DNA of 64,000 bases from Acanthaster planci (lineage: Eukaryota), in assembly GCF_001949145.1 (NCBI RefSeq), contig NW_019091360.1, forward strand, positions 4,296,159-4,360,158, written 5' to 3'. Of this stretch, positions 11,660 through 47,980 are shown in pieces. The translations under genes and the position numbers were made by a program. Under the pieces are notes generated by a model. It was not told where the DNA came from and did not search any database. It saw only the letters and a program-made list of their open reading frames with translations. Within the stretch, counting starts at the first letter, position 1; the number at the start of each line of letters is the position of its first letter.

Positions 11660-12136
11660 TTACAATGTGAAGTCATCGTAATCTGCACCATCTCTCTTGC
11701 CAAAGAATAGACCGAAGCCATACTCATCATGTGCCCTCTTGCTTTGTTGATCAGCTCTGCCACTCTTCCTTTCATCATGATGTAGCCAAGTACCTCTTTT
11801 CCCCCAGAACATACCGTGACCGTAGTCGTCCACTTTGGACTGTCGTTGTTTGCGTAGGAACCCTTCATGATCGCCAGGGTTGTTTGGGTCTTGCAGAGCT
11901 AGCAGTAAATCCAGCACGGAACCCGAGTCCCTTGGCTTATCCAGTAACATTGACTTGGCCGATTCTGCCAGCTCTTTGGAACCCTGATTTGTCATAGCAT
12001 CGGAGGGGTCTAACCACGTGTTCAGTCGTTCCCGCCTGTCGTTGCCATCAGCTACGTCACGAAGAGGCAGGCACGCGATTGGCGAAAGCAAAAGGCACGT
12101 AACTGTTGCTATGGCAACACTAGGCCAATTATTCAT
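11660..12136 (-). CDS. CCK: Sulfakinin/cholecystokinin (SK/CCK)-type neuropeptide precursor, 158 aa, single coding exon
   Basis: ATG at 12136 begins a signal peptide (MNNWPSVAIATVTCLLLSPIAC). Two peptides with amidation/cleavage signals: RKQR-QSKVDDYGHGMFW-GKR (11795-11842) and KR-AHDEYGFGLFF-GKR (11693-11734), each with acidic residues before a sulfatable Tyr at position -7. Near-identical to starfish SK/CCK peptides (Asterias pQSKVDDYGHGLFWamide, GGDDQYGFGLFFamide, from memory). Splice acceptor TTTTCTTCTGCACTGCAG|GTCACA-ATG. Confidence 0.95.
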   Translation of the reverse strand: MNNWPSVAIATVTCLLLSPIACLPLRDVADGNDRRERLNTWLDPSDAMTNQGSKELAESAKSMLLDKPRDSGSVLDLLLALQDPNNPGDHEGFLRKQRQSKVDDYGHGMFWGKRGTWLHHDERKSGRADQQSKRAHDEYGFGLFFGKRDGADYDDFTL

Positions 12137-12142
12137 TGTGAC

Positions 12143-12163
12143 CTGCAGTGCAGAAGAAAAGAC
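12143..12163 (-). other. Splice acceptor of the 5'UTR intron of the SK/CCK gene
   Basis: Minus strand GTCTTTTCTTCTGCACTGCAG|GTCACAATG: polypyrimidine tract plus CAG, with the exon starting at 12142, 6 nt before the ATG. Confidence 0.8.
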
Positions 12164-15100
12164 GAAATGATAACTGTTTCTTAAAGCAAGGTTACATAAG
12201 CTTGAATAAGAAAAGATTTCCTTGTAATATGAAGAACGTGTTTGACGTATGAAAGAAGACAGTAATGGGCCTTCTGTTCTAACCTTCACTCCGATACACC
12301 GAGAACCAGTTTTGATTTCTTCCCAACTTTATTGCGAGAGGTATGCAGCTGCTAGTTGGAATTCGCACAAAACAAGACGTAACACCTCGGTAGTGATAAT
12401 TCTTCCTGAAAAGAACTACGTACCTGAATAATGCGCGGCAGAAATATCAGGTTATAAATATCAGAATATAAGGTTGTTGTAGGTTTCTTTCCCTTTAGAA
12501 TATAACTTGTTTTATTGTCATGCGTCATTTTTTTGTTTCTCGTTACTGGACTTAACACCAGATAACAAAAAAGTTAATCTTCAAACTAAAAGACTCGTCA
12601 AAGACCAACTTATTCCAATACCATAAAGACGGAGGTTGACTGCTGTCAAACTGAACCCAAACTCTTGTTGTGTGTACAGCAACGGATGGAATTAAAAAGA
12701 ACATATATCACATCTACTGGGATCAGCTGCAGATACCAACGTCTGCTCTTACGGGTAGTTCGTCTTCGTTTTTATCCGCCACACAGACTTAGGGATGCGA
12801 CGTTACACTGTTACTATATACTGTCATACTCTCTGGAGTCGTTAGATTTCCCACCTTTATTTTCCTAAGTTACCCTCGCAGATGTAGCTAATGAAATTGT
12901 TCAGGTCTCCCTCCAATACACTGCAGAAGTCCTCATCAATTTAAGTGACAAAGGTGTTTTGCCTGAAGCAAGGAATTCCTCGATGAGTGATGAACTCACT
13001 CGGCAACCGGACGATATCAAGGAGCACTAATGTAAAATCATTTTGACTGAAAATATCGGATTCACGCACAGCCCGCCAATCACTTCCCAATAACTTTACT
13101 AGAGACTGTCAGTACTTTGCGACGGAGCGTTTCAAAAGATATCTAAATTAGATTGAACATGTGTTTGCTCATACTTTGTGAGGAGCTCCAAGTTGTTGAT
13201 AAACACGAATCGATTTTTCAGACATATGGTTGCCTAATATTGAAAGAGTCGATAAAAATTCAGCAGTAAATATTTTTTATTCAGAGTTTACAATACATTT
13301 GGCAATTGAGAAATACATTTTATGGCCAACCTATGAAAGACGTGTACCGGTTTCTACCTCATTTAAATATTGTAAATTAAGTTATCATCTTTCCAGGTAG
13401 TGCTGCATCCATGATATAAAACAAATTTGTTTAAAATAAAATTCAAATTTAAAATAAAATTCAAAATTTGAAGCTTATCAGAACAGCCTTTGGGAATCGC
13501 TTTGGATGTCGGATTTGTTTTCAATACGATAATAAATGTCAAATAGCAAATATTGGTGCATCAAAATTAAAAAATTGAAGCTGATTCGTCTAACATTTGA
13601 CAGCTCGTCGTTACTTTTTCAGTCTGGTGACTGAATTTTGCCTTTTTCAAAACGTACAGGGTGATTGTTCCCACGATGATGTCTTCTTATAGACTGTGCA
13701 TCCATCCATGCGTTCATGTGAAGACTTCAGGAAAATGTTAAAGAAATTTTGTGGGGTTCATTTCCCTACTAAATTACAGCTCCAAAATCCATGACTTATC
13801 TTCTAATCATCCTCAGGACAGAGAAAAGAATTTGCATTTGAAAGAATTTTTGTCGTCAATTGTCCATTTTGGGAAGACAAAATGACACTCAACCATTCCA
13901 AACGCCAGAGAATTTTTAAGCATCTATGCACATGAGAGACGTATAGGACTGATACCTAAATATCTTTATAGAAGGTAAATTTACCGAAGCAATTTGGTAT
14001 GAGCAATATATTAGCTGAAATGATTCACGGAGGAAAACAAACGTTCAGTAAAGCCGAGGTGGGTTCATCGGTAGGTCGCACACCGGTGGTGCATTATGCA
14101 ACCATTTGTCCGATCCATATTCACATCATCATAGATAAAGTCTTGCTTGTTAACCAAATGCATTCATACAAAGTATAATCAACTTAATTGGCAGGTGTGT
14201 CTGGGTCTAGTCCTTTTACATGATGGATCTTTTTCATGTAGATAATGGCTTGTAATCCTCATTAGCTTATGCATTGACTAACAATCATAATAACCCATAG
14301 TATTATAATACAAACATTCTTTACCTCAGCTGTGTTCAAGGTACTCCTTGATACTTTTGTCGTGACATCTGTACCAATACTGGTTCTACCAGAATATTTT
14401 TTTCTTGTTGGATAATTACTGTTGACTAAATTGCAGAGCTTTGTTTGAAAGGTGATGTTTTCCCTCTTGGGGGGAGGGGGACAATCATGAAATCATTGCT
14501 CTGACAGAGATTGCATTTTCTTCAAGGCTTCTTTGTTCACTGTGTTAACATAATTGTTAAGTTATTAGCGGGGCCAATCCCTGCACGTGGAATGTGTGCA
14601 AAATTTTATCAGAATTGGAGAACGAAGGACTGTTTAGGAATCAAATTGGACAAATACTGAATGGGTAAGTTTCTATAAACAGTTTAAAGGCCTAGACAAT
14701 CTTACGGTCACTGACCATTTTCAAACACGATTACCACGTGAGAATTTTGCATTGCTGTACAATTTTGAGTTTGTCATCAAACGCTATCCCTGTGCAGAGT
14801 AATCATTTGCTAAAACAAATCTTGTATTCTTGAAGACTCCAATGACTTCTTTCATCAGTTTGTTTACGAACAATTTTCCAGAGGGAAACAGTACTTGTAG
14901 AATGTATTACAATACACAGTGGGAAACCGCATCGTGTGTTTTGTGTTTGATTCGCCTTACACAGGGCGCATTGTAATTGGAAACAAATGACGACTGAAAT
15001 ATCTAAGATGATGAACCCGAGCGAAGTGTGGACTAGCCAAGACTTGGTGTTTATCTTAAGTGAAGAAATCTTTTCTCTTAATTAATAAACTAGTGCAAGC

Positions 15101-25770: not shown

Positions 25771-26160
25771 CTTACCTTTCGGGGGGAACTCTTAATGCAG
25801 TTTAGGCACTCGCGTAAAAAGAGTCAGAAATATTGCGACGCAGTGGATGTCAGAGCTTAGAATGAAACTCTAGCAGGCGCGTAAACTCGATGCCGTTTGC
25901 TTCTTTTAAGAGCAGAGTTTTGTAACAAGACAGCCAAGAAAGTTAAGATGAAATCACCTCGGTTTTCATGCTCCGTCGAGACAGATAAATAAGGACTTGA
26001 TTGGGTTGTGCTCTTTGCTGTACGACAGAAGCCTGGGTGTTGAGATGTAAGTCAAAGTGGTTGAGCAGACTATGATGAACCCTACGAGATGACTTCTACC
26101 TTGGACAGTGGTAGGAAACGCGCACACGCCAACACTGACGCACGACAGTTAACCAATGAA
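25771..26160 (-). promoter_or_regulatory. Candidate first (non-coding) exon and promoter of the SK/CCK gene
   Basis: Strong minus-strand donor GAAAG|GTAAGA (exon end 25776); CpG-richer segment; TGACGC (26136-26141) plus TTAACCAAT (26149-26157), as in the candidate promoter at 47.9 kb. Linkage to the CDS is not proven. Confidence 0.3.
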
Positions 26161-29029
26161 AACAAGATGTCAACCTAAGCATGCGCCCCAAATTCAATTA
26201 TAGCCCACACGCTGATATCTTGGCATTAAAAGCGTATGAAATGGTCCTACTGCGGTGGCGGACTTCAAACATGGAGGCCCCTTGTCAGTAATTGCCTATA
26301 TCTTATCCCCTCCCCTTCCTGCTGTCTGTGACGCACCCTTGTCTGAAAAAGGATGACTTTTATCTTAAATTATTTAACTTCTTGATACTACGTGATAAAT
26401 GGACGATACTCACAGAAGTCGGATCTTACAAAGTCCTTGAACGAATCGGCTTTAAGTAGGGGGAAGGTCTATCAGTCATGCATGACCTATCCATCAAGAA
26501 AAAACAGCAGTCATTCGTAGGCGACTGGGATGAAATTAAGTTCAAATATCCTTAAAATTGTCTTGTGCAAAATGATTAAGAGTATTTGTTATACATGTTT
26601 TCTCTGGACAGGACGTTTAGGAGGGAAATAAACTTGATCTCGGTCAGGGAGGGACGCAGGAGTTCGCGGTAATGGCAGACGGCGTGCGATGTCATGCAAA
26701 AGTGCATGGGATTTATAGACCTAACGCGTGATATCAGAAAGCCAAGTTGGGAACACAATCGCAATTGTTGCCAATAGGATTGAGCAACAAATGATGTTTA
26801 TAAAGCCACTGCATTTATCCCAAGAGAAAGTGAAAACCTAGCTCAAAAACAAAAAAACAAAAAACAAAAAAAACACCTAGGCCAGAGCAATCAGCCTTTC
26901 CCTCAAGTTAAATTACGTTAGAAAAATCTCAGCAGACATTGCGTCGTTGATCTTGTGGAGGGCGCACTTCGTTTCACCGTTAAGTTTATTTTCAGTCCGA
27001 TTTTTCACTCTGTGGAGCTGTGCGTGAATCATATGACGACAGACTGGCCAGTGTGTCATACATGAATATCGACCGAAAAAGACTCCAATATGACGTAGTT
27101 TTTAACCTTTAAAGACATACTAATTTCCGTGTTGACTTTTAAACAAATAAATGCAGAATATACACAATGCATAAAAATATCCTTGTCTCCACTAAAGCTT
27201 GAAGTTCCCATAGACTTATTCTTAGACAAGTAATAACTTCAGATGTTTCCACTAATTTTAGACCTATGAAAATGTAATGTTAAATGGTAACATTTGATGC
27301 GCAAAATGGTGATGACCTTGAAAACTGCAACGATTCAGAATATGTCATGCGCATACAAAATATCCCAGTTTTTGTTGAACTTGTTTACCGATGGGGGCGC
27401 TATGTACAATAGAAAGCTCGATTCTGGATATTTTTTTCTGCACAGATTACCAGAGCAAACAGACTAATAGTGGACGTATGGCCGTCTTTTAAACTTGACC
27501 TTTTTGGGGGGCGCTATAATACCGGGTGATTTTGACCAAGCGATTTATTGCAAATTTTCAGTACGTGCTCTTGTCGAAGATAGAGTGTAATTGGTAGTCA
27601 AGGCAATGTTGACGTCATCATAAGATAATTTAAGCGCCATGCCAAACGTTCGTACATCAGTCCACCAACACTCTGTCTTGTTTCAGGATTTTTTGAAAGG
27701 TTCTCAGCATTCCAGCGTCTGATCTGCTAACGATGCAATGATTTCTCTTTGTCTGTCATGAACTGTCACAAGGGCCAAAGGGCTGTATCTTGGAGATCTC
27801 TGTTTGTACTCATTGCCCGATCTTACTTTTACTTATTGGGCATTATTGAGTGTACATTATCTTCATTTGACCATTGTGCTGTTATTATGGCATCATACAA
27901 AAGCACGGGCGTAAATCCCAGGGAAACGGGGTTTTTTATCCTTCAACTGGGGGTTGGGCTATATAGGATTTGCATTTGCTGCAACTTGTCAAAATTTGCC
28001 GATTTGGGGGTTTTCGATTTACTTTTGTATCATTCCACAAAGTTGTTTCATTTTTTGAGATCACTGCTTTGAGAAAAATCGAGAAAACGCAGTTTATTTT
28101 TAACTCTCGAAGCGCAGCTCATGTATACTAGCTTGTCTCGCAAATATCCACGGGTCACAGGACATTCCTGAGTGCCTGAACAATGTACAGGCGAGGTCGA
28201 TCTGCAGACCGATTATGGCCCTCAAAAATGCATTTTCCCACTGTTTCGCTTTGTACAAGTTGACAAATTTACCTTCTAGCTTGTGCTTTCTCTTCAACAA
28301 TGCAGCGCTGAGAATTTGTCAAATAAACAATGTTTCGTCGGTAGATGATGTGACTGCAGCCATCACATTCATTGCGCAACCACACATACTTAAAAAAAAA
28401 GTATTCATGTGTATGTACACGTGCACGACCGACCACACAATCATTCAAGTTGGGTTCGCTCTCCACATCGTTCAAAAACCCTCTACACGTCATCAGTGCC
28501 CACCATAAACACTTCATAAAATAATAAACGATATGGTAACAACGGACATGAGAGTTACTGTTATTGAAAAAAACAAACAGAAAGCTAAATCGAAATTGGA
28601 GATTTGTTCGGGAAAAAGGCTTCGGCACGGAGCTACGAAGGAACGGACATTGGACCATACCATTATCTAAGGGATGATAGCGATATGATATATTCACGTG
28701 AGGTAAACTTCCAAAGTTTCATGAGGAACTTTAATTTAAACCAGTCCAAATTCTCCATTTGCAAGTTAGTTATGGATATGTACCTACCTATTTACTTCAT
28801 AATAAGTTTAGACTTACCGAAGACGTGTTGGCAGTTTGTATATTACCCTTTCAAATAGACTCTTCCAAGAGCTCAATACTTTTCACACATTTTCGCTGTG
28901 CCCGTTAATGGTTGCGGTATTTAAACAAACGGCATTTTCTTACTACGTTCCTGCGTAAGAAACTTAATTTCTTATCTATATCTACCTCAGCTGACAAGTT
29001 TGAGCTTCCGAACGAGAGGTAGTTTTGAA

Positions 29030-29970: not shown

Positions 29971-30049
29971 TTATGCAATATCAAGCAAAACCTCAGGGTG
30001 CATCAGAAGAATTATATATCAATAGGCCCTATTACAGTTCTGAATATAT

Positions 30050-33000
30050 TTAATAATGCGGTGAAAGTTCTGTTTTTCACAAGAATTTAGGAAAGATTTG
30101 TGTGTATTTCAGACGGGGTAAGATATTTTTGAGGATTTGTCTTTGTGTAACATATTTTCGACAGGTAAGGAGAAAATGTTCGACATTATCAACACATCCA
30201 CATATATCACAAAGATCATTTGGGTGTTTACCGATCTTATGAAAAACTGGTTAAGACCCTTGCATGTACCTAATCGTAACCGGTGTATGGCTACTTCCTC
30301 GGCACGATTCATTGTCCAGTTTGGGAACAAGTCAGAAGGAGACATCATTGTAAATATTATTGGTATGTTTTGGGATTGATTTTTCCAGTTATTTTGAAGT
30401 TTTACTTTAAGAGTGTGTTTAACTTAATTAATCGATAAAGGGATGGGAAGATCAATACTGTTTTTCTTGGTCGCGTTTTTAGCAATCTGATTAGCTTTTT
30501 CATTTCCTGGTATACCGCAGTGACCGGGGATCCATTCAAAGTGAAGAGTGTTCCCTTGATTGCCGATATTAATCGTGGTGTGGCGAGTATCACAAACAAT
30601 TTTATCTGCAGGGAAAGGTTTATCGATTGCCTGCAAAGCACTAAGACAATCACTAAAGATGCAACCTTGTAATGGTTTTGAGTCTTCAATCCATTCTAAT
30701 GCAAGAAGAATGGCAAACAATTCTGCAGAAAAAAATTGATATACCATCATTGATACGAAAGCCTTTAGAGTAATTTAATTGGGGAATGTTTATAGCGCAT
30801 CCAACAGTTTTGTTATCAAGGTCTTGAGAACCATCAGTACAGGCCTATATTTGTAAGTAGTTCCCCAGGTAGTGTTGTTAACGCCAATAGTAATATTTCT
30901 TTTTTCATAAGTATTGTCTGTATGAGCTACTTGGTTAAAAATGTCCGTAGAGAAATGAGCTTTTCTGTAACGCCAATAAGAAAAGATATTATTGAGGGGG
31001 AAGATGGTTGAAGGATAATGAATGATTCTCGCTTCGTAAGGTGTTTTATAACTGGAGTCAGACCATTTGTCCTCAAAATAGTGTTTTTGCCAATTATTAA
31101 GGTTAAAATGTTTATTTGGATGGTCCTGGTGGGCATTTAGTTTAATAGCATATAAGCTAGCTAAAAATTATCGTCGAAGAGCGAGTGGTGGTTCGCCACA
31201 TTGAATGTGTAGTTTAAAGAGGGGAGAGCCCTGAATCGCACCAGTGCATATTCTCAAAGCTTGATATTGGATACTATAAAGTTTTTGTTTAAGAGTAGTT
31301 GAGGCTGAATCAAAGGCTTCCCAACCATATTCTAGGATGGGTTTTATGAGGGCACAGTAAAGTTGGTAAAGAGATTGGCCATGTGCCCCCCAAGAGGTAC
31401 CATCAACGCATCTCAGAATATTCAGTCTTTTTTTGCACTTCATAATAATATCATCGATTTGTTGTTTCCTGGTGAGTTTACAATCCAAAGTAATACCAAG
31501 GAATTTGGCAGCAGATTTGGTCTGAATCTTAAGGTCTTGGATACGTAAAGAAATGTTACCATGAGTTTTGTTGGTAAAAAGGACAGCAACTGTTTTCGGG
31601 ACCGAGAGCTTAAAGCCCCATTTATCAATTTTTAATGTTATTCACATCCAGTTGAATTTTCCTTTCCAGACAGGAGATATTCCTATTTGATTTCCAAATT
31701 GCTATATCATTCGCATATTGAGTCATATTAGCATCAATTATATAATTCGAGAGATCATGTTGAAAATGATGACAAGGTATTCCCGTATTTGTCAGGTAAT
31801 CGTTTGATGACAGCATTACTGATGCCATCTTTACCAGGAGAGGTACAGTTACTGGAATTAATGGCGTGATTAAGTTCCTCTATTTCGAAAGGATCATTGA
31901 TAACACTATCGTTGTTTTCATTAAACTGGAAGGCCTCTTCAGTATCATTTTTAATGATGTTGAAAGGAGGATTGTAATTACGATTACTACTAACTGCAGC
32001 AAAGCTGCTAGCCATGGTGTCAGCCATTTCTTTGTCAGTAACCACATCAGTGTTGTTAAGGCAAAAGGTCGGGATGCTGTTGCTGTGGGTCTGGCCAATA
32101 CATTTGATTTTATTCTAGACTTTTTGGGTATTAGTTCTGGGGGTTATTTCTTTACAGAATCTCTCACAATCTTTTCTTTCAGCTTTATTTATGGTTTTCT
32201 TAGCAATAACACTAGCTCATTTTAAGCTATCAGGTCAGAAGGCAAGCATGTTTTCTTGAGGCTTTTCAAAGCTTGTCTTTTTTCAACTATGGCTTGTTTG
32301 CATTCTTCACTCCACCAAGATTTTGGGGGACTTGTGATGATTGAGGTGAGTTTTTAGGAATGGAATCATTCATGGCAGAAACAATTTGTTCGATAAATTT
32401 ATCATAGACTTCATTAATGGTATGGGAAGGGTTGGGTTCTGAGCTGTGCTTATTACATGCAGTTTTGAACATATTCCAATCGGCTTTTTTGAAGGACCAC
32501 TTCGGAATTGGATTGGCTAGATTTTGGTGAAAAGAATGGTCAATTTCCATGATAACAGGACAATGATCACTTCCCCATGTGTCATTTATAATTTTCCAGT
32601 TACATTTAGCAGCTAAATTTGGGGACATAAAGGTAATGTCTAGACAGGAGAAAGTGCCTTTGGGGATGTTAACTCTTATGCCCTCACCAGAGTTCATACA
32701 GACTTAAGTTTGTCTCGGCAGTAATGTCATCTATAATCTTGCCATTATGATCCAAAGAGGAACTTCCCCGGAGGGGGTTGTGTCCATGAAGGTCGCCACA
32801 ATCTATATTAGGAGTATCTGTTTTATGAAAAATCTCTATAAGGGAGCCATCAAGCTTGTTGCAAGGATTGTACACATTAATCAGTTTAATTTTTTTCCGG
32901 CACTCGGTGTAGAGTTCACCAACTTGGTATTTGATTTGGTTAACTGAGTGTGACAGGTGTCTAAAAGCTAAACTACGTTTGATGAAAATCGCACATCCTC

Positions 33001-34430
33001 TACCCCATTTTTCGGGGCTGTGTTTGTCCAGTCATTACGGAATATCATAGCCCGGTAAATTGGAAATTTTCCCTTCTTTGAGCCAGGTTTCCTGAATTAA
33101 GGTCAGGCTTGTGAGTCCAAGAGTTTATGGCATTTTAAAATTCGTTACCATGAGCTAAAAGAGATTGCGCATTCCATTGTAGAATAAGAATCATTAACAG
33201 ATAAATCATGAAGATGTGTTGATTGGTTTACCTTTTGGAGTGTTACTTCAGCTTGCCTCGTCATTAGTTGGATTCTTGTAGCTAACTCTACTCTTACGGC
33301 TTGAGCCACTTCGCTTTGTTCTGATTAGGACTCGGACTGTGAAGATTGACTTGGTTTCCATTGTTTGGATTTGGAAGCGTCCTCAAGGTGCTCAATGTGC
33401 TGGACCAGTTCCTTATCAGCTGAAAGTCTTTCTTTCTGGTTTTGTATGGTGTCCCATATTTGCATAGTACCAATGAGTAATTCAGTGAGCTATTGCTCGT
33501 TACAAATGCACTTAATGTGTTCAGTTTTTGTTCCCGTAGTTTCTTCTGTTTCAGTGCAAGCATCTTTGGAGTTGGCGATTTGCATGACAAGAGTCGACTA
33601 GTTGTTCTCCTCGTTAACATTTATACGATGAATAGAACTGTGCTCATTGACAGTATTAGCAGGTTTCGATGAGGGTGCTGATTGAGTGATGTTATCTGGT
33701 CGAATTGAGATATCAGTCTTAATGGCTTTTGCTGTGTCAGCATAAGAGATATTATATGTTACTCTGATTCCCTGAATTTTCTTGTCTTGTTTTACTCTAT
33801 TGCAGCCTGCGTAAGCAGATGAGTGTCTTTCAACGCATCTACAGCGCTTCACCTGATTCTTTCGGTTACATTATTCAAAGGTGTGGGGTCCCCCACATTC
33901 AACGCGTTAGAGTTTTCAATTTTCCTGCTTGTGCTGAGGTGTGACATTTAACAACCCTTTGGTTGTTTTTCGACACACTTTTAATGTAGGCTTTACTTTA
34001 TTAAGTGCCGCAGCGGTGCGTATTGGATTGACTTTAGATGATTTGATATCAGGAGAGTTAGTAACCAAAGTAGGTTGGGAAATGGAGGGTTGTTCTTCGG
34101 TGTATCGTCGCTTTGACGGAGTTTCACTACAGGGGTATCATAATCCGAGTCCGAATAAACATCACTGTAATTGAGTGGTTTCGGGCGTTTTCTATTCTGT
34201 CTTTGCGTTTGCGCATCATGCGTTTGAGAGTTATTTTGTGCTTGACTGATTAGAACATCTATGGTGGGTCGTGGTTGATTGTTTCCATGTTTTTCCTGGA
34301 CTTCCATTGGGGTTTGTTGAGATGCCGATTGGTTCCATGACGAATTATCAGATTCGGAGTCAGTTAATTCCCAGTCGGTGTTATTGGCCATGAGGCCAGA
34401 TTTAGCTCAGAAAGAGATGAAAAGCTCGAT
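30050..34430 (-). mobile_element. Decayed non-LTR retrotransposon (I-group LINE with ORF1, APE endonuclease, RT, RNase H, C-terminal CCHC)
   Basis: ORF1 remnants 33294-34391 with a knuckle-like CRCVERHSSAYAGC. ORF2 from ~33209: LQWNAQSL, LIQETWLK, GDLHGHNP, CLDITFMS, GSDHCPV (APE); SPGKDGI, QYANDIAIW (RT, YADD degenerate); TDGS, SAELFAILLALEWI, IFSDCLSALQAI, WIPGHCGIPGNEKAN (RNase H); CDICGCVDNVEHFLLTC. Many frameshifts and stops. Confidence 0.92.
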
Positions 34431-34689
34431 CGATGCACCTTAGGATTTACTGATATTGCTTACTTGTATCCCGTGAAGATAAAAGTGGATCACTTTCAAC
34501 GACATTGATGGGAGCAACAAAATTTGAATTTCGCGCCACAACAGAGATACAACCGTACTCAATCGCCGCTACAGAGAGACCTAAAGGAAAGGCCTATTGT
34601 TGTTGTTTGGTTTTAATGGCGCTTTCAGCAACTCAGGCTATTTGCACCAATAACGTTAACTGTACGTTTATTCATACATTTTATTAATC

Positions 34690-34838
34690 AGCATCACATT
34701 ACGGAGTTAGGGAGAAGGTCCAGTTTTAGTGGCAGAAGGAAACCGGAGTACCCGGAGAAAACCTGCGAGAGCGAGTATGGACAGGAAACCAAATGCAGTT
34801 AAGGCCTGGGCCAAGCCAGGACTCGAACCTGGGCCTCA
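34690..34838 (-). mobile_element. tRNA-derived SINE fragment (V-SINE-like core)
   Basis: Minus strand has Pol III B box GGTTCGAGTCC (34819-34829) followed by GGTTTTCTCCGGGTACTCCGGTTTCC (34738-34763), the conserved V-domain motif; 5' end interrupted by the adjacent MITE. Confidence 0.7.
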
Positions 34839-34847
34839 TTAAATGAA

Positions 34848-35140: not shown

Positions 35141-36481
35141 TTAAATCATCTCCCCACATTCCCTTGGCGAGAAAAAAATAAGGTAGATCGTGAAGCATTT
35201 TTCAGACGTTCTACTATCCAAAATGTATCAAATAGCATTCACAGAGGGAGAACACTTTAAAACAGCCACAGATATGCCGGTCCGATGTCAGATTCTGACT
35301 CTGTAGGAATGACATGCGTGTTACAGATGTTCATCTGGATCACGAATATCGCCCCCTAGAGTCACATTGTATCTGCATTGCCGGGCAAGTCATCCTCCAA
35401 CAATTCCCTATCCGCAATCCCCGGCCCCCGGCACAAATTTAATTTTTACGCCACTGTGCATAAGTGAAATAGACAAACGAATGCGTACTTGAATGGCCCT
35501 AGAAAGTATTTGTTTCTGAATGTTACGATGTGTGTAGTCCTGTTGTCCTCTTCGAATATTTTTTATGGGGATGTTCTACAAACTAAGTTGCTTCAATCAA
35601 TGTTCACGCCTAGTTCGACATCATCATGAATTTAAGACTGTTCCCAGGGACGGGTCAATCTGACAGGGCTGGTAGATCAGGGATATCTTCGCTGGTTAAT
35701 TATCAGACTGACCATGACGGGCGGACAAGCTACCCTGTTGAAATTCTTGGCTGTGCATCAGATAGCAATGGCCAGAGTTTAGGCAACGTGTGTCGTAAGT
35801 TCTTACAATTGCAAATGGGACTGGCCTGTGTTCTTCATCACACATTGCGCTATGCCGTCCTAGTGCTGTGGTGACCATCAGAGCACAGAGCTGGGTTTGT
35901 AGCTCTATGGTCAGAGTTTGTTCAGTCTCGTTAGCGCCCTCAATCATCAAATTTCGTTTACAGTGTTTGAAAAATTTAAATAAACCAATAAATATGATAA
36001 TAACACGATTTACATGTAAAATGATTTTTTTAAGGAATGGGTTATACGTGTATTATCCGCCGTGCGCAGAAGCACCCCCTCATCGGTTGAAAAGAGCCAT
36101 GTCGGTCGGGAGTGTTTATTTTGCTGGTAGCGCCACGATCGCAATGCGTGCATTTCATAGTCGATTGTGAACCTGTGAACCAGCGAAGTGGAGTTTCAAC
36201 CAAAAGAGCATCTGTTGCTAGAAAAATTGCGCGCGCCCTCTCTTGTTCCATCTTTGGACTCATTGCGTCAATGATGAAATATTTCTCAGTCCAAGTTCGC
36301 TATTATTGGCGTTCTCTCAGCCAAGTTTGTGATTTGTTTCATAAAATGTTATGATACCATTTTTGCTGACACTGATGGCTTCTTTGGATTTAAATTCTGA
36401 TACCAAATTAGATGCCAGTTTGTAATCATGAGCATATACCGTAACGTGGCATGCATACACGAACAAGTACATGTACTTTAT

Positions 36482-36750: not shown

Positions 36751-39700
36751 TTTTATTAATAATATCACAACAGAGAAATCTTGTTTCCCCTCCCAAAGGG
36801 ACCTCTGCATGCCAATGGGGAAAAAAACACTTAAAAATCCAAAAGTATTAAATTATTACATCAGAAGACGGAAAGGTCATGATATTTTCTGTATCTGTTA
36901 GATAACTGATAGACGAAGCAAATAGCCGGAGAGATCTGATGCAGAGGCTCTTTCTTCATCCGATCTCTGGTGTCCCACGGGGCAGTTTCTCCTGATCGTG
37001 ACAGAACACAGGGACATACACACATTACTCAATATGCCCCTAGGATTGGGGTCTTTAAATCCAAGCCGGCGTCAGTGCAGTAAAACGCAGCAAAGACTTT
37101 AAGCCACCTCTTTGAGATGATCGCGGAACCTTATTGCAGGATCGTTGTCACATCCTCGACGAACACGAACACCGGTCACAATCGCCTCTGGGGACGTTAG
37201 CCTCGACGTAGTTGAAAAGCCCAAAGACCTGTCGTCTTATCATTTGCTATTTAAATTCTCACGTGTGTTAGCACAGCCTAACTACATGTAGGGCCACATG
37301 GGCAAGTTATAAACACAAACATTGTCCGTTTTACTTGCAACCGGCATTCAATTACAATTCAAAATCATGTCCTTGTTTGATTTCGACTGTCGAGTGATTT
37401 TATTTGTGTACTTTTGGTCAACAACTTCCACTATGACGTTTTGATATCGGTATTTCGCAATAAAATTTTGAAAAAGAGTATCACGTCACAAGTTCAAAGA
37501 TTAGAAATTACAATAAGTATACATTGCAACTGAATAGCAACAAAGTTGAGTTAAATCAAATGATACAAAATACACTGACTGACAAAATTATGAGAATTTG
37601 TTTCAACTACCATGTGTAAAAACGTCTATGTAAAGAAATGTAAGTATAGATTGAATAAACTTTAAATGTGGGTATTTAGTGCATTTATAATTTGTGAAAG
37701 TTACTCAGGGATCTCCATTATAATCCCGAAAATTGATCAGTATAAATCTCTATCCATGTAAATATAAATGAATATATCCTCGGTCAGTATGATACGCATT
37801 TGTAGGGGTAGTAATCTAATTTTGCAAATCATATCTTTTCAGGTTGTGGATGCTTTAACTTCAGTTTTACACGAATACATCAACGTTATCACGCAGCGCA
37901 GAACTCTTTCGTTGTTGATTGAAACTGTGAAATTAATTGATTAACGAAACTCAGGTAAGCCCATTTGCGCTCAAAAGCTAATTTAACCCAAAGTTTCAGA
38001 TTTTGATTTTTAACATCTAATTTAAAACTACAGTATGGTTCATTTGCTTTCTTTGAGGTCCCAACATCAGATGATCTAAGCAATGTTATTTTACAGTTAT
38101 ACACCTCACTTAATTGACAGCACGATTTTAAACAGCGTTGTTTTATGTGCCAATAACAATTTATGCGAACATAGCACGAACACAGTCACGTGGTTTCTGA
38201 TATCAAGCACATTGCACTGGGTATAGTGCGTGTCCAAGTCTTGGGTGGAGAAGGCAATGACCGTCCATTGTTTTTCACCTAGAAAGGTTCCTAATGCTCT
38301 CCCTCCCCACTGGACATGCTACTGATTGGGAAGAATTCTAGTATTATTAAGAAAACCTTGATAAAACGACCTTACTCAACAGTTTTCAACTGCTAAATAA
38401 AGCACACACGTATAACTCTGCGCGTGTCATTAGTTTGAACATCGTTATCAATGAAATCAAATGTGTTTTCTTCACAAGCAGCTTTCTCAACTTTCTCTCT
38501 CTGTTTGCTTTATTCGGAGAAAATACACAAAACTGTTTTACTTTAAAAAGGAAGCCCCGAACGCTCGATACTTACACGTAAAATTAAAGATTTTTTAATG
38601 CTGAAGGACTATAAATCGGTAAATTGCTAAATTTATCTGCAGGCATAGGAACTGACCCGAGGATGTCTACTGCTTTGACTATAAAATATCCAATGAATAT
38701 ATTCACGTGAGTTCGATCCATGAAGTCAAGGTTTACTGTCATTCTTCCCTATTACTTTTACGATTAGAAAAAAACAACAGGAGCCCTCTAGGATAAACCT
38801 GGATGACCACACGTTATGCATTAAAGAAGAATGGAACATTCATAAAACGTTTTCTTCCCATAGTCTTCTTTTATTTTGTCAAATTTACAATGTCGGAAAA
38901 AAGTGTTAACAGCCATTGCATTGCTTTGATTAACATAATGTTAAGCGTTTTATGTAGTACATGTATTCATTAATGTTTATTTTACCATTTTAAAGAAATT
39001 TAGTAAACTATTCGAGAAGTTACCTTGTAGTTGATTTTATGTTTCTTCCATTAACTGTGCTTGATGTACCATTTCTGCATTTGAACAGATTTAGAATTGT
39101 TCATTCTTATAAAGTTATAGACTAATTCAAGCGTTTTGTTCACGTTTAATTGCATGAAGCCAAAAAAGACAAAATGCCCATTTTCAATTCCTTTTTTGTA
39201 TTTCATTATCAAATGGAGACATTTATTGACGTGTGTCTAGCTGTGAAGCTCTCACATAGTTATTTTGGCATCGACTTAATGACAAGTAAAATGAACGTGA
39301 AATAATCTTGAAAGCTGACTGCGCTCAAAGGCAGTCACGGGGGGGGTAAGTATTTGCTGTTCTGTTGGAAATCATTAAATCAGTCAAACGCCAATCTCTT
39401 AAGTAGAGGGCCCGGCATTGTTTCTACTCAAGTACCGCCCCATGTACTTCCATAATAATCATCATTAACAGTGCACTTGCAGAGAGGGTTTCACTAACTT
39501 CATTAGCAGAGTTTGTTGACTTTCATATTGTCGTCAGATAGTGCTAAGCGATATTTCATCTTCAAGCCCAGTCAGTTCTCGCATATCTCTTCGTGTCACC
39601 TTAAAAAGAACAGTACTGGGCAATAAAGTATTGAATGAATAAAAGACGGTATGAAATACTTGTTCAACCGGGAATGGATGCAGAAATCATTTTCTAAACA

Positions 39701-40513
39701 CGAAATCGGCTAACTTCATAAGCAACACGAGTTTCAACTGAAACAGGGCAAGAGGAAGGTAGTCGGGTTTCTTGAACCCAGGATGCTTACTTTAGGAGCA
39801 GTAACAAAGAGACCCACTCCAATAAACCGCCTCTTTTAACGTCAATAATTTGTGTCCAAAAGAAGGGGTACTCAGGACTCTACGAAGGAGCCTTTCTCTA
39901 CATCAGATCATTCCAAACCTCTACGCATCTTAGCTACTACATGGAATATTTCGGCCAACTCATTGCACTTGGGGCGTATTCTAGGTTATCTAAATAAGAA
40001 TAATGTCTCATAGAACGAAATGACGACTACGTCTTAGTGCGCTGCGATATGGCGTGTCAACAAGCCGCAGTCATAGCCATCAATAATTTTTGTCCTACAT
40101 CTATCAAGGTTCATTAAAGCAGTTGCGTTCAATATGTTCGCAAAAAAAAAGCTCACTGCTTGTCTTCGTTGTGTTTTGTATCGTCGGAACCAGTTGGCCT
40201 ATATACAGCAAGGAGACAGCACTGAAATAAATCCAGGAGAAAAATTGCGCAATTTTGGATTAAGGCATAGTGATTTTAGCGCGACTCTTAAAAATGAAAT
40301 AAACAACACGGAACACTTTGAGAATTAATGTCCACGTAACACATATCATTCTTTGGTGAATTCAGAAATTCATCTGATTATGGATGATACCATCAGAGTG
40401 AATTCTTCAGCCAGCTGTAATGTCACGATTCTATAGTCAGTCTATGCGGCAAGGCTGCAAGGAACAGTGTCGCATGTCGGGTAGGAAATAAGTACTTCAG
40501 TTTGTCTAGATCT

Positions 40514-40795
40514 TTACTCGTCTTCGAATGCGTAGTAACCAGGATCTTGAATCACCAACTCGCGATTTCCAAGCATCCTTTTACGGAAGAGAGTACCGCC
40601 AAAGTGGTAATCATGTTGCTCGGGTCTCCTGTTTAACGAGCTCAGCGGACGCCTTTTCCGCTGTGATTCTCGTTCAATCTCTGTGTCTAGGTTGTACTGT
40701 TGACGGAGATCGTCTAGTCTCGATGCATGTACCTGCTGACGGACTAGACACCAACAGCATAATATGGCGACCATAAAGACGGCCTTGGTTTCCAT
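40514..40795 (-). CDS. Putative neuropeptide precursor, 93 aa, divergent SK/CCK-like paralogue (DYHFGGTLF)
   Basis: Signal peptide METKAVFMVAILCCWCLVRQQVHA; acidic spacer; basic sites RKRR, RR and RKR flanking ...PEQHDYHFGGTLF; acidic Tyr-bearing tail DPGYYAFEDE. Splice acceptor TTCCTCCCTTATTACAG|AACATA-ATG lies 6 nt before the ATG, with A at -3. Secreted precursor status is well supported; family assignment is inference. Confidence 0.8.
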   Translation of the reverse strand: METKAVFMVAILCCWCLVRQQVHASRLDDLRQQYNLDTEIERESQRKRRPLSSLNRRPEQHDYHFGGTLFRKRMLGNRELVIQDPGYYAFEDE

Positions 40796-40970
40796 TATGT
40801 TCTGTAATAAGGGAGGAATTTCATTCTTGGTTACGTTTGTGGTCCATATTTTAAGTCTGTCAAGAGCACTCTTAGCCTTCCAATTTCAAAGTGATTAATT
40901 TTCAGTCATAACATACGGAAAGTTAACAATTAAAGACTACAAGAGATGTTAGACTAGTGATCAATATAAT

Positions 40971-41694
40971 GGGTCGTATGAATAAAACGTAGCATTTCCA
41001 TTTTACCACTATTTTTAAAGCATTTACTCGTGTTTGTATGAATAACAACGAAGCAAATGCTTTTACTTGAGTGCAGTTGCTTTTAAGTAAAAGTATTTAC
41101 TTTTTACTCTTTAAGCTTGTGCTGGACAATAAGCAGTTGCTTCATTTTGTATGAATAAAAATGAGTAAGTTCTACAGAATTGGAGTATTTACTTGACATG
41201 TTTCAAGACCGGGTCGGGACAAGCTTGAAAACGAGGAGCATTTACTAATGTTCAAAATGGCAGCGTTCATGAATGTCATTCGAAAGGAAAAACTGTATGC
41301 CTTTAGGAGGAAATCTCAAGAAACCAGATGCAGACAGTTGTACCGATTTGAGAGTGGCAGAGCAATTTTCTTCATCGAGGTTTTTGCGATCAAAATTACT
41401 GCCATCGTGCTTATCTGCCATGCTGAAGTCTCAAGATACAGCACCGTGCTGCACTGTGCATCTGTACATGCAGACAACGGAAGCCCTATTGTGCAAAACC
41501 ATCCGGCTGTGTAGTCAGCCACAAGCATAAAATATTTGCTAATATTTATACTAGTACATACTGATTAGTAAAAAAAACATTTTACTCCTACAAATTCAAG
41601 CATTTGCTTGTTCTTAATGGTTTGACTTCTCAGTAAATGCTTCTAGTGTTTGCTTGAACTTCATAGCATTTGCCAGTTTATATCCATACGACCC
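40971..41694 (+). mobile_element. PIF/Harbinger-like deletion derivative in the intron upstream of the second precursor exon
   Basis: TIR GGGTCGTATGAATAAAAC ... GTTTATATCCATACGACCC. Internal translation MAAFMNVIRKEKLYAFR...CRQLYRFESGRAI loosely resembles a Harbinger transposase N-terminus. Confidence 0.6.
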
Positions 41695-44600
41695 AGTGAC
41701 TGGCATATCGAGAAAGTTAACAAAAAAATTAACAATGAATTAAAAAAGAAACAAATGCCATCCCCTATGAAAAAAACAAAACAGACTCAGTTTCAACAAA
41801 ATGGATAGCCCATCTAACCATTTTTCTTTTTCAATTTCTCGAACAGCGACTTCAACGTTAAGTTACGTTTACCTTTTTCTAAACATTGTAGTGTCTTGTT
41901 CAAGCCTAAAGCCCAGTGCACTCGTACACAGTTTATCTTTCCACAATAAATTGTGGGATCTGGAGTAATTTGTACATGTGGATTTTTGTACAAACATTTC
42001 AATGAACATTATAAACATTGGTTACAGTTTGTGTAAGTAATCTAGCAAAGTCCAACCTAAAACAAATACATTTATTTATCATCATTTAGTAATCAGCAAA
42101 TCTTACACTTTCTTGGAAATTTCACCCCTTGGTGCAATTCGGTAGTTACAGCGAAGAATAGATAGCTCTCCTGTACGAACAAAAATGATAATAAATAATT
42201 GGAACTTGATATCGGCAAGGTTAGAGACACGAAACACCATGTCCAATAAATTACAGGTTTAAATTAGGATTCTCATTTTGGAGACATGTTTATAATCGGC
42301 CGCTGTTGTATAGATATCAGTGCAAGGGGAGAGCTTTAACAACGCCTTCCAACAGTTAGCACCCTCCTTTGGGTATTGTATAAATGTTGATGATGACCCT
42401 ACTTTCAACTTATATCACCGCTACGACGTCGTTTGTAATGAAACACAACGATTTAGTTCTTCAAAGGCTGTGCAGTATGGTCAAGCCGTGAACATTGAAG
42501 TATGTCTGTTTATTCTTTAACATGATTTGGACTATGATGAATTACAGCCGCCTGATTGTTGTTTTAGTCTCGAAATTTAAACGTTTTTAACAACAGCTTT
42601 CGTGATTGAGTAGACAAATGTTGAATTGATGCTGTGGTTATAGAATAGGTGGCTTCCTGGCTACTTTCGCCCATACCTACGTCTGTTCATGATGGATGGG
42701 TCAAATTAAGCTGAATAAATAATGAGCTGTTCCTCTTAACAAATTTGTGTTTAATAATTTAACATTTTAGCATAAACCAACGTGTCATACATCTCACAGA
42801 CTGCACGATCCAGCGCAATTAGTGGACTAGGAGCCCCGTGTGTGTGATTTGGGAAGCATGTCTAACTTGTGGTATTTCAGTCTTAGAATTTCCGACCCAT
42901 TAGAGAAGGGAATTACCTGATAACTATGTTTGTACTTACTCCAGTCAGCTTGTAGTGATTGCAAATGGTCCTTTAGAACGAAATCCGGAAAAAAATAATT
43001 CTGAAATAAGAGAATATCAAAAGCAAAGCTCACTGACTAACAATTTAAAATGTTCAAATTAATATGACGAATGATTGATGGTACCAATCCCAAACAGCCA
43101 AACGATTTCCTTACAGAACAACTGAGTTCATTTCGTAAAAACAAATTTGCTTCTAGAAAAATGCTTGCACTTTTCCTCGTTTCAGGTTCGATTTCTCGGC
43201 ATTTATAACACCTCACTGAGTTTTATAAAACTGTTCAAAGCACTTAATGGCAACTGATTTTGCTCTGGATTATTGGTTCAATCATAGAAAATCCAAGTTG
43301 AGATTTTTATGGAGACCGATGTGAAATATCTCGACAATGTGAGGGCGTGAGATGGCCACAGTTCATCCTACATACTTCTCTACATTGGTCTTCTAGAGTT
43401 GCTTGAACTATTGCTCACTGATTTATTACAAGTTCCCTTACCCCATGAATCCTTAATTGGGAAGTAACGAAAGATCTCCTATTATGACATTTCTTTGCGT
43501 GTGTGTGGATGTGTGAGTGATACGGGCGATTTGAACGATTCTTCACGTTCTTGCTCATCTATACAATAAATAAATGATTTTTTTCTAAACGCCAAATGAA
43601 TATGGTTCCAGCGGACAGTGGACCTCCCTTGCAATTCATTAGAAAGATTAGAATGTCGCTGTCAGTTTGGTTTAGGTGTTTATGTTAACTGGAAATTGCC
43701 ATTTGGTAAGGGAGGGATTGTGTAAACATGGCAAAGGCGGGGGATCAGTTTACTGGATGAAGAAATATTAAGCATGCTTTTCTCTTACCTGTAACAGAGA
43801 TCGTAATCTTCAAATTATCATAAAATGAGATTGAAATACCAAGGCAAAATGCCCAAATAAAATAGATTCCGATCTTTCCTGCGTCACAACAGTAGTAAAC
43901 AACACGAAGCATTTGGAATTGTAAGGACGAGGATAACAATGTCTGCTGTATAGTTTTTGGTAACAAAGCAAAAAAGTTACGCCCTGTTCTTGAATAACTA
44001 GAATTGTTTCGTAATTAATGAATTATATGCATCTTATGTACTGCATTTTATGGTTCAAAGCCCCAACAAGGAATGACTCCCAATCAAGTTTCCTCCTTCT
44101 TACTTTGATCAAAGACCAATCTCCGTGATGCTCATTAATTTACAACATTTTTATTTCGCGATTATGGTGACACGAAGTAAAATTAAATCAGGATATGATT
44201 CCCATTACAGGGAAGTGCGTAAATTTGATTTACCCCAAATATGCTACAGTATGCAAAATCTGCTAAGCTAAACTGGCTTCAAGTTGAACAGAATGTTTAA
44301 TTTGACTATAGAAGAATTGTACATGTATTTGTCATAAATTGGTAATTGATTACCATACCAAGGTCCAGCAGGAAAAGAAGTTCGCTTCATTTCTCTTTCA
44401 AAGACCACACCCTATCAACGTGTGGTTGTCAAAGGTCTGTTTATCAAAGAAACATGTAGGAACTCTTCGTTTTTCAAAGTATAATTTAGTTTCAGTTGGA
44501 AGAAGGCGAAGGCGTGGTGTTTAATATTGAGTTTTATGGATCAGTTTGACTTTGCTGACAATAAAGAGTGCAGTGACGCCCAAGAAAGTGAGTAGGACAC

Positions 44601-47600
44601 TCAAACCTCGATGTTCCAGATATTGATGTCTGTTCTCAATGATGTTTCTAATCCCAAAATTAGTGTGGTGGTAAGTCAGCTCAATCTAGTTCTTTTAGCA
44701 AATCATTTGATCTGTTTATTTATTTAGAAGAAATTTACCTCCTTTGGTTAACTTTCCGTTACTCCCATTTTCGTCGTATAAACAACAATAAGCCGACAAG
44801 ATTTGCATTAATCAGTGCCGTAACTCTGTCGGCCCCCGATGAAACCAGCAAGGCACTTAGTGTTTTTAACGGCAGCGCACATATCTGCCCCGTTCGCTCA
44901 AACCTCATCGTTAAAAAGGGGCTGCACTCCGGAAACTTTGGAGTGGTGATCCTATGACGCACTTGAACAATTCAGGTGAATTTCAGCGAATTCTTGAACT
45001 GCTATAATACGACCAGCGCTGACATCGACCGTTCATCTTGTCACTTGATAGGAGTGATACACTCATCAGACACTGGTCTAAATGGATCGTATGTCCACAA
45101 TTCAGGTAGTTTTCACCTGGCGACAACCGCCCTGAGTCAATTAAAAATGCGGCAGAAAAAGGACCGTACCTCTTCATTCTATACCGTGGAGTATAATTAA
45201 CGTCTACTCGAGAGTCCTTGGGAATTCATTGTTATCCTGTTAGGAAGAAGTTAGTTTTTTACGTTACCTGGTCTAATCCAATTCTGTGTTTTTTCGCCTA
45301 AAATGTAACTATATTTTGTAACTACATTTTAGGCGAAAATGTAGTTGCATTGTAAACGAATGAAATCCTAACAAAACTACATATGCTAGGCAAGATGTAA
45401 CTCGATTATGATGTACATGTAGTCGTACTGTTGAGGTAAGCGTGTGTTTGTAAAAGATTATTATTGTTGGGGGGTGATGAAATCGTGCATATTAAGTGTA
45501 TAACGGTGTGTTAAAGTCAGCTTGTTTGTGCGCATCCAACCCCAACTTTTTAAAACTAAATTGTGTCAACTAAAGCTTTGCATTTGTGTTCTTTCAAAAG
45601 GTGCCACTAGCTGTATATTTGTATTCTTTATCTACATCGCTGTCAGAACTCTCTCCGTGCCTCTGAGGTGGCAGAAACCGACTGGCATAGCCGAAATGTG
45701 CTTTGAATTCCCACTTATTTTGTCCCACAAGACTTTTTGTGTATACATTTTATCATTTTGACCGAACCTGCGGAAGGACGAAATACCTGCGAATGCTGTA
45801 ATTCACCTTATCCTTGATCACAATAACGCGTTAGGTACCTGAATCAATTGTCTTGGATAGCGTTTTGTGAGTTCGTTACTCCGATCATGGATTGCATTCA
45901 GATGAAATATTTTGAAGAAGGACGCATGTGCAGGCTGGGAATCGGAAGATGGTCGTGCCAGCGAGATTGTCCTGCTTTATATTGTTACTGTTTTGCTGAC
46001 AGGATACGAATGTATGGACAGTTTCTCTTCACGGCCTGTAATTCTCTTCACACTGTCATTAATTATCATGTTTGCCGTCAGACAGTGGCTGAGATTTTCA
46101 TTTTTTTATTCATTGGATTTTTCCCACTCAGTTTAGTAACTTTATTTGTTCTTTATCACTTAAACTAAAGGTCATTTGTTAAAATAACGTTTAAGTTTTT
46201 ATGCCTCATCCATTCGAATTTTTTGAAATGTTTTTCTTTTAACCACATAAATTTACGGTTGAAACTATAATTCTGCCCGTATCAACCTGATAGGCTTTTT
46301 ATGCGTCTGAAAACTGAAGTTTTCATGATTTGTTCAGCTGTTTATGTTGGTGTAGTCATGAGATGCGATGTTATTAGACCACTCGTCCCACGGACAAGCA
46401 GTCTGCTGAACAAGAGCGCTGGAGTTAGAGGATGAGTGCTGTTATATGCTCGTTTTGGTTTGAATTTAACATGACAATGAAACCATAATAACCTGTTAAC
46501 AAACTTTGTACATCTGACTACCATGCATTACGTCTGTAGGCCTACCAAGCACTTTGAAAATTTAAGTTTTTCATTGGAAATTGCAAATGATACCGAACTC
46601 TGTTCACACGGTAAAACTGTTGATGTCTAGCTGTCAACGAGAAATTCTCAAACTGTGTCTTAAAAAAATTAAGATAAATCAAAACTTGGTTTAATACGAA
46701 TATGATAATTTTAGGCAATGGTTGAATTGAAGGAGGCCAATCAACCCAATTTTTGTCGATTTAGCAGTAAATAACTATAAATATGTGCCTTTTAAAAAGA
46801 ACTTGCCAAACGTTTTTTTAAATGGAATTTCGAGTTTGTCGTTGTCAACGTGGTTTTGTAGTGCTTTAGTCAGGGACATAAGAGGATCTAATCTCGACTC
46901 ATTCAACTCTCTATAGAATTATTACAAATCGATCCATTTCCAAGCAACACACTTACAGGCCCCTATGCCTTAAATTCTACTCATCCGTTATGTCATTACA
47001 TTCGTTCCTCGTATGACTAATAACTAAATATTTTACCAAATATTTCAAAGCAGACCATGTATAAACTAATGCAGGCATCTCCTAACACAGCCTGGGGCAA
47101 CAGATGTTATCTGTACATTATCCTATCAAAAAATCATATCACGTCAAAAATCCTGTCATGTACGTCACTCTGCATTACATTAGAAATCCAAATATCTCAT
47201 GAAACCGCGACTAGTTTGAAGTAACGAATTATTGACAAATTGAATCTAAAACGAGGGTTTTTTAATTTGTTTTCAGAAGCCGATCTTTTTGTCTTAAAAC
47301 TAATCATACAACTGATTATACAATAATAGAAGAGAGGGTTTCCTATACATAACTGTACCTGATTCGTTTCCATTTTTCATTCGTTAATTTTAGGCAAGAG
47401 TCATCCATTCAATTGTCCAAGTGGTCTACACGATTTGTTCTCTCATAGGCCGGAGAAAATATTCCCCAGTTGACGAAGTAACCAGGTTGAAGTTTCCATC
47501 TCACTCTTGATGGTTTAGTAAGAGCATAATTGGAACCACATGAAAAGCATGAATTTTAAAAATAAGTGCAGAAAAATTGCTTTCGGCCTAAATACAATAG

Positions 47601-47775
47601 AATAGTGCTTGCTGCTTTCGACACTGTCGCACATTTCTGACATTTGACAGACATTTGAAGTTGACAAGAATGTATTTTTTAAATATTTGTTCAATATGAT
47701 TCCCTCAAAAGTGAAATGTCTTTGAAATCAAGCGATCAAATCTGCCACAAAAGCATAAAGGTGAAACAGTTGTCA

Positions 47776-47980
47776 CTTTACCTTGAATAAACGGCTGCCG
47801 TCTGATTACCAGGTACTAATCTCCTTGTGTCGATCACTACCTTCTGTGTGCTGTTCAAATAAGTCCAGCCCGTTATATCTATAGCCTATGACGCCTACTG
47901 CCTCAAAGCCATTAACCAATCACAGCCTTCCGTTCCTTTGGTTCTTTATTTTACCTATCACCGGAACTGTACTGACGTGA
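47776..47980 (-). promoter_or_regulatory. Candidate first non-coding exon (~47782-47850) and core promoter of the second precursor gene
   Basis: Minus-strand donor CAAG|GTAAAG (exon end 47782); TATA-like CTATAGATATAA (47873-47884); TGACGC 47889-47894; TTAACCAAT 47912-47920; TGACGTGA 47973-47980. Confidence 0.45.

Follow-up and report, generated by a model that had tools for sequence, protein, structure and literature searches.

In published surveys, starfish are treated as having a single SK/CCK gene, and the SK/CCK peptides of Asterias are known to be amidated and sulphated and to activate the SK/CCK receptor at 0.1–0.3 nM (PMC8428848). Two paralogous CCK-type precursors within one genome are known from vertebrates, the gastrin/CCK pair being ascribed to whole-genome duplication (PMC8921109, PMC8428848), and among invertebrates only spiders are credited with two sulfakinin (SK) genes in a review (PMC8921109). 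A second CCK precursor with only one peptide, CCKP2, is known from brittle stars through the work of Zandawala and colleagues (10.1101/129783, PMC5627052); it was not found in a preliminary Patiria assembly, and a possible loss in Asteroidea was suggested (10.1101/129783). The window analysed here, a stretch of 64,000 nucleotides of Acanthaster planci DNA (assembly GCF_001949145.1, contig NW_019091360.1, positions 4,296,159 to 4,360,158 of the forward strand; all coordinates below are those of the window), contains two precursor genes on its minus strand: an SK/CCK precursor gene (gene 1; open reading frame (ORF) 11660–12136, 158 residues) and a second gene (gene 2; ORF 40514–40795, 93 residues), with 28.4 kb between their coding sequences. 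Judged from its sequence, gene 2 is likely the starfish orthologue of the brittle-star CCKP2. Based on the by-eye match to CCKP2, the adjacency, the same orientation and the common acceptor spacing of the two genes, we regard gene 2 with moderate confidence as a tandem SK/CCK duplicate that predates the split of starfish and brittle stars and has lost its amidation; its product would consequently act poorly as an agonist at the SK/CCK receptor.

Gene 2 is a real gene that is transcribed and spliced from four exons, and it is apparently unannotated. Exon 4 (39030–40801, minus strand, as are all further gene 2 features; 3' end approximate) comprises the whole coding sequence and about 1.5 kb of 3' untranslated region (UTR), as delimited by two RNA contigs (39032–39345 and 39340–40801) and by the read depth, which ends at 40801. 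The RNA junctions mapped for this gene confirmed that the acceptor predicted at 40801 is used and placed three non-coding exons upstream of it, i.e. exon 3 (42107–42170), exon 2 (42940–43000) and exon 1 (47782–47860; 5' end approximate), which are devoid of an ATG and separated by introns of GT-AG type throughout. The joint 43000>47782 was covered by 7, 14 and 1 reads in the runs X13, X16 and X17, respectively, the joint 42169>42939 (the exon borders given above place the cut at +1) by 10, 11 and 1 reads, and the joint 40801>42107 by 9, 6 and 0 reads as well as by one contig in run X1; all three joints are present in two raw-read runs from two studies, with single reads at two joints in the third run. 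In run X18, 19 reads with loose ends at 40801 continue into exon 3, and 75 reads over the coding exon show no other letter; a contig of run X6 that covers part of the coding exon is identical, with no cross-species difference, and run X8 yielded no sequence over it. A single first exon common to genes 1 and 2 and spliced onto both coding exons may exist, although all three joints listed from gene 2 exons remain within gene 2. Based on the RNA joints, the entire gene 2 precursor is encoded by one exon; a single-exon precursor has been reported for echinoderm SK/CCK genes (PMC13548532), a feature that is not specific to them, as the kisspeptin-type precursor KPP2 likewise has a single coding exon (PMC9400282). 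A candidate promoter (47870–47980) is delimited by motif matches, with a TATA-like element at about 47875, an ATTGG at 47920 and a CRE-like TCACGTCA at 47980. Directly downstream of the 3' end of gene 2, a separate 1.3-kb contig (37668–38985; run X1, depth 17) may either extend the 3' UTR or belong to a different transcript.

The 93-residue prepro-peptide of gene 2 displays the general layout of a neuropeptide precursor, a signal region and conserved basic sites around a conserved peptide. The signal peptide is predicted from hydropathy alone (3.0 for the best 10 residues) to span approximately residues 1–24 (40724–40795), and the tetrabasic RKRR at residues 46–49 (40649–40660), invariant in the orthologue P0006 described below, is the predicted N-terminal cleavage site. 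The predicted mature peptide, PLSSLNRRPEQHDYHFGGTLF (residues 50–70, 40586–40648; residues 49–70 if the cut occurs after KR), is supported by its conservation in P0006, ends in DYHFGGTLF and would be a free acid. At its C-terminal border (40577–40585), Gly-Lys-Arg is replaced by Arg-Lys-Arg; the codon of Arg71, CGT (40583–40585), is one base away from a Gly codon, and we count in favour of an amide loss that a single substitution suffices for this exchange. No other letter is seen at these codons in the RNA reads or the DNA contig, and the Arg is also present in P0006; gene 2 has one peptide with a Phe-Arg-Lys-Arg end and no amidation Gly in the window, in its RNA and in P0006. Because the amide donor Gly, a defining feature, is missing, the gene 2 peptide is not filed as SK/CCK-type; it is likely a derived paralogue. 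Tyr63 is preceded by Asp at position −1 and Glu at position −4 (E-x-x-D-Y) in both sequences, gene 2 and P0006, and is a sulphation candidate. P0006 does not conserve the internal RR of the peptide, which precedes a Pro. A CCK-like regular expression matches only the three peptides of genes 1 and 2 in the window compared with 0.07 per random 64 kb; as the expression was written when gene 2 was already known, this is not taken as evidence.

A search of 1.84 billion representative sequences returned P0006 (89 residues, from an ENA contig; 58% identity, E 4.4e-25) as the only orthologue of gene 2. The identity is highest in the peptide and its basic sites (20/28 in residues 46–73 versus 29/65 elsewhere; Fisher p 0.024), the remaining regions contributing 14/24 (signal), 11/21 (spacer) and 4/20 (tail) identical residues; within the peptide, the N-terminal half and DYHF have been retained, whereas the stretch ahead of the last Phe has diverged (GGTL in gene 2, AAGI in P0006). 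The word-based homologue search gave no match with gene 2 alone and, among 71 candidates, only P0006 with the two-sequence alignment. Two sets of apparent matches were rejected: a repetitive beetle protein (P0007, E 5.7e-06) as a chance match, and nine metagenome loci whose match is confined to the Cys-rich signal region (residues 5–37 of the query). The 58% identity of the orthologue together with the best-kept peptide block indicates a real gene under constraint. It is highly improbable that gene 2 is a non-coding transcript or a duplicate in decay, in which the loss of the amide would mark a loss of function, since the orthologue retains the open frame, the signal region and both basic sites, with the peptide block as its best conserved part. 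In favour of decay, the exact gene 2 protein is absent from a collection of 15 billion proteins and the peptide motif was not found in the literature and proteomic supplements searched, the latter being a weak argument because the motif of gene 1 was likewise not found there.

The comparison with CCKP2 was made by eye, with hand counts against three printed sequences (Ophionotus, Amphiura and Ophiopsila; supplement of PMC5627052). Like gene 2 with its 93 residues, the brittle-star precursors are short (approximately 100 residues), contain one peptide, similarly placed and with a DY-x-FG..F-x-KR core, and share anchored residues in the signal region. Anchored at Met1 without gaps, gene 2 has 8/32 identities with Amphiura and 7/32 with Ophiopsila; with one gap of two residues, it has 6 identities with Ophionotus, and P0006 likewise reaches 8/32 with Amphiura. 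A second block is located upstream of the peptide, where R-x-L-[AS]-S-L begins 13 residues before DY in gene 2, P0006, Ophionotus and Ophiopsila (12 in Amphiura) and is preceded by a basic cluster in gene 2, P0006 and all three CCKP2. Anchored at DY, 4 of the 13 upstream residues of gene 2 (R-x-L-x-S-L) are identical in Ophionotus and Ophiopsila, and residues 49–73 have 11/25 identities with Ophionotus if one gap is allowed. With an assumed background identity of 6–10%, the binomial tails of the two anchored blocks are 0.0005–0.036 and 0.006–0.034. The R-x-L-[AS]-S-L and other upstream features are missing from gene 1; by these residues, gene 2 seems nearer to the CCKP2 of brittle stars than to the adjacent gene 1. 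The peptides differ in that CCKP2 ends in F-Gly-Lys-Arg and has Y-G, whereas gene 2 and P0006 end in F-Arg-Lys-Arg, have Y-H and are one residue longer in this part; the tails of CCKP2 and gene 2 are unrelated. In the surveyed literature, the genomic position of the brittle-star CCKP2 was not found.

Gene 1, in contrast to gene 2, is the already known SK/CCK precursor, the orthologue of ArSK/CCKP. Its coding sequence (11660–12136, minus strand) occupies a single exon, and four homologues align over the full length with 60–75% identity, i.e. LOC119740447 of Patiria miniata with 75% and three others with 60–71%; among the latter, P0005 (60%; 163 residues from its second Met) carries the printed Asterias peptides. 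The SK/CCK1 peptide QSKVDDYGHGMFW (11801–11842) and the SK/CCK2 peptide AHDEYGFGLFF (11699–11734), both on the minus strand, with the amide-donor Gly included in the coordinates and KR following, match ArSK/CCK1 and 2 (PMC4772807), and the SK/CCK peptide pattern, [DE]-Tyr, six residues, C-terminal Phe/Trp and Gly-Lys-Arg, occurs twice in the precursor. With ArSK/CCKP, gene 1 has in common the cores of its two peptides, the Trp at the end of the first peptide and a DY[DE]DFTL tail, with no notable difference; gene 2, set against the same precursor, carries a single peptide that lacks the amide donor and shows no significant similarity. The gene 1 protein is present in the 15-billion protein collection, and Pfam contains no family for either of the two precursors. 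In Patiria miniata, two gene identifiers (LOC119740447 and LOC119740413) stand for an identical SK/CCK precursor (P0002), owing perhaps to a recent duplication or to two haplotypes in the assembly. As to further parts of gene 1, candidates for its non-coding exons and promoter, all on the minus strand, are a strong donor AG|GTAAG at 25777, a TGACGTCA site at 27617 and a donor-like site at about 12423, 280 nucleotides above the acceptor.

The two genes were first noticed from the sequence as a minus-strand pair about 28 kb apart with an acceptor AG exactly six nucleotides before the ATG in both, and these statements were borne out. A pyrimidine-rich tract followed by CAG precedes both start codons at the same distance of six nucleotides, the exons starting at 12142 (gene 1; predicted acceptor region 12137–12165) and at 40801 (gene 2). 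In two of the four gene 1 homologues, an upstream read-through ends in Q-x-x-M as in the window, as would be expected if the CAG six bases ahead of the gene 1 ATG is conserved. A scan of the window for precursor-like ORFs (ATG start, hydrophobic start, hydrophilic remainder and dibasic site) returned genes 1 and 2, gene 2 also from its second ATG, and additionally 36042–36251, which lies inside a multi-copy repeat. The layouts of the two precursors, by contrast, do not match as the original prediction had assumed: gene 1 has two GKR-ended peptides and a spacer of 73 residues, gene 2 one FRKR-ended peptide and a spacer of 21 residues, and the short acidic Tyr tail that had been listed as a common element is not conserved, the tail of P0006 being devoid of Tyr. 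The old local SK/CCK duplication that had been concluded from this supposed identity stands as the best reading, while its stated reason does not, gene 2 lacking significant similarity to gene 1. The main feature of gene 2, the loss of the amidation Gly in both known copies, had escaped this first inspection.

The adjacency, the orientation and the acceptor spacing could equally be claimed for a tandem duplicate of SK/CCKP1 that arose in starfish only, independently of CCKP2, and then lost the amide donor as well as one of its peptide copies. A weak peptide-level match to the peptides of the gene 1 family (scores as high in 27 of 2000 gene 2 shuffles and 33 of 2000 P0006 shuffles; p ~0.015) and the finding of only one gene 2 orthologue point in the same direction. 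However, a younger copy should resemble its neighbour more, and outside the peptide gene 2 has nothing detectable in common with the starfish CCKP1, yet matches CCKP2 at anchored positions; an origin within starfish is accordingly regarded as improbable.

As stated before from inspection of the letters, no nucleotide similarity is visible between the two loci: the best blastn match comprises 26 nucleotides (E 0.016) and lies outside both coding exons. No host gene was recognised between the genes, in agreement with the same earlier inspection, since only 1 of the 242 open segments (62 plus 180) of at least 45 amino acids between 12.2 and 39 kb passes the Pfam cut-off, and this one encodes a retroelement RNase H; exons of less than 45 codons or genes without a Pfam family escape such a search, which between 12.2 and 33 kb consisted of the Pfam scan of open segments, without RNA evidence. 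The RNase H (PF00075, E 5e-07) belongs to a decayed non-LTR (long terminal repeat) retrotransposon (30400–33031, minus strand) whose endonuclease and RNase H parts lie in broken frames; no other coding remnant was recognised in the interval from gene 1 to gene 2. The adjacent endonuclease matches (PF14529, E 2.9e-05 and 0.001) fall below the cut-off, as do five weak matches. The broken retrotransposon region extends over 30400–34400 (minus strand), with a strong strand skew at 30–34 kb, and short interspersed repeats at 34600–34840, 36055–36135 and 41070–41430 attract many divergent, loose-ended RNA reads from other loci. Upstream of gene 2, subtilase (Peptidase_S8) exons at 56700–58480 (minus strand) with Pfam E values of 0.003–0.008, below the cut-off, might serve as a synteny marker; SF3A2 at 3757–4056 (plus strand; E 0.006, below the cut-off and without other support) was rejected as a flanking gene and is probably a chance match.

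Several observations weigh against a descent of gene 2 from an SK/CCK gene. A full-length comparison of gene 2 with gene 1 gives no significant similarity (BLASTP E 0.40, hhalign E 0.56), with 53–383 of 500 shuffles scoring at least as high, and ten other open segments of the window (of 3303) outscore gene 2 in the comparison with the gene 1-family peptides (29–34 versus 28). Ambulacrarian SK/CCK peptides have Tyr-Gly and six residues after the Tyr (five to seven across the family; PMC8428848, PMC6586643), whereas the gene 2 peptide has Tyr-His and seven residues. Neither homologue search with gene 2 returned a brittle-star sequence, and the match to CCKP2 was picked by eye and after the fact among 43 listed Ophionotus precursors; indeed, the unrelated Ophionotus CRH1 has 8/15 unanchored identities to residues 18–32 of gene 2 (5/15 for P0006), so that by-eye matches of this kind can be chance and the match to CCKP2 is suggestive, not proof. 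In addition, "CCK-like" echinoderm peptides have once been reassigned to the kisspeptin-type KPP2 (PMC9400282).

This earlier mislabelling and the missing similarity to gene 1 would also suit an unrelated secreted-peptide gene (an orphan or a kisspeptin-2/SALMFamide-like gene) that lies beside SK/CCKP1 by chance, in which case the DY..F-RKR and the 6-nucleotide spacing would be coincidences; under simple, assumed null models, an equal acceptor-to-ATG distance has a chance of approximately 1–5%. The AAGIF end of P0006 resembles ArKP2.2 (SGGIF-amide), Y-x-F recalls SALMFamide S2, and the Atlas neighbours are generic neuropeptide precursors, gastrin/CCK holding rank 12 for P0006 (score 0.89) and being absent from the matches listed for gene 2. 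KPP2 shares with gene 2 the single coding exon and has peptides ending in G-x-F or G-x-x-F, as P0006 does (PMC9400282), but differs by its longer precursors with two amidated peptides. More generally, KPP2 and SALMFamide precursors are longer and almost all multi-peptide and amidated, and the Acanthaster KPP2 has already been assigned to its own annotated gene (PMC9400282). Instead of several amidated G-x-F or x-F peptides, gene 2 contains, as judged by eye, a single peptide without Gly. As an unrelated gene would furthermore require chance adjacency, equal spacing and the anchored CCKP2 match together, this explanation is considered unlikely.

Prohormones are generally processed by convertase cleavage at basic sites and subsequent carboxypeptidase trimming. 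Applied to the favoured reading of gene 2 as an old tandem duplicate, the 93-residue precursor would enter the secretory pathway and lose its signal peptide, prohormone convertases would cut at RKRR (46–49) and RKR (71–73), and a carboxypeptidase would trim the basic residues to yield a free acid of 21–22 residues ending in DYHFGGTLF, with Tyr63 possibly sulphated. Since amidation, together with sulphation, is reported to be critical for SK activity (PMC8921109), such a peptide is predicted to be a weak agonist, or none, at the SK/CCK receptor. As conservation covers its N-terminal half and DYHF but not the stretch just ahead of the final Phe, the peptide would most likely signal via another receptor or mode of binding. 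It is conceivable, if doubtful, that a second asterozoan CCK gene has been kept in tandem ever since starfish and brittle stars separated and that a single Gly-to-Arg exchange turned its product into a free-acid, Tyr-sulphated peptide with a receptor of its own, or into a natural modulator of SK/CCK satiety signalling; CCK would then have given rise to a new peptide-receptor system.

Among the known two-gene systems, the vertebrate gastrin/CCK pair had been put forward as an analogue of the starfish locus; the analogy holds for the presence of two paralogous CCK-type precursors in one genome and not for the mode of origin, as the vertebrate pair is attributed to duplication of the whole genome, does not consist of tandem duplicates and, unlike gene 2, retains the C-terminal amide in both members. 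The second sulfakinin gene of spiders is, like gene 2, a single-peptide gene in a genome that also has a two-peptide gene, but it belongs to another lineage, and neither a loss of amidation nor linkage is reported for it in the accessible part of the review (PMC8921109). The CCK-like precursors of sea urchin and sea cucumber were reassigned to KPP2 with citation of the same urchin source as used by Zandawala and colleagues (PMC9400282); we infer that the urchin "CCKP2" is KPP2, and therefore the true CCKP2 may be confined to Asterozoa. A brittle star has a KPP2-type "tachykinin" precursor that is separate from CCKP2 (PMC5627052 supplement). No description of gene 2 was found by full-text, topic and supplement searches, which included PMC9759900 and PMC9971248, two sources in which the motif of gene 1 was missed as well; these searches do not extend to Menschaert et al. 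2010, to 8 of the 20 supplement files of PMC9400282 or to the Acanthaster neuropeptidome (Smith et al. 2017), which may list gene 2 under another name. Several ApNp precursors were named in the latter work, according to PMC9971248.

The reassignments to KPP2 leave the brittle-star CCKP2 without relatives in the literature surveyed, and gene 2 would supply such a relative. If the proposed orthology is true, the duplication would be dated to the asterozoan ancestor and shown to have been local, and a conserved SK/CCK derivative without an amide would be unusual. The predicted gene 2 peptide could be applied directly as a ligand to the characterised SK/CCK receptor of starfish, whose pathway ends feeding, and to orphan receptors. 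A CCK paralogue that was thought to be lost is, on the orthology and function deduced above, probably present in starfish, linked to the SK/CCK gene and devoid of its amide.

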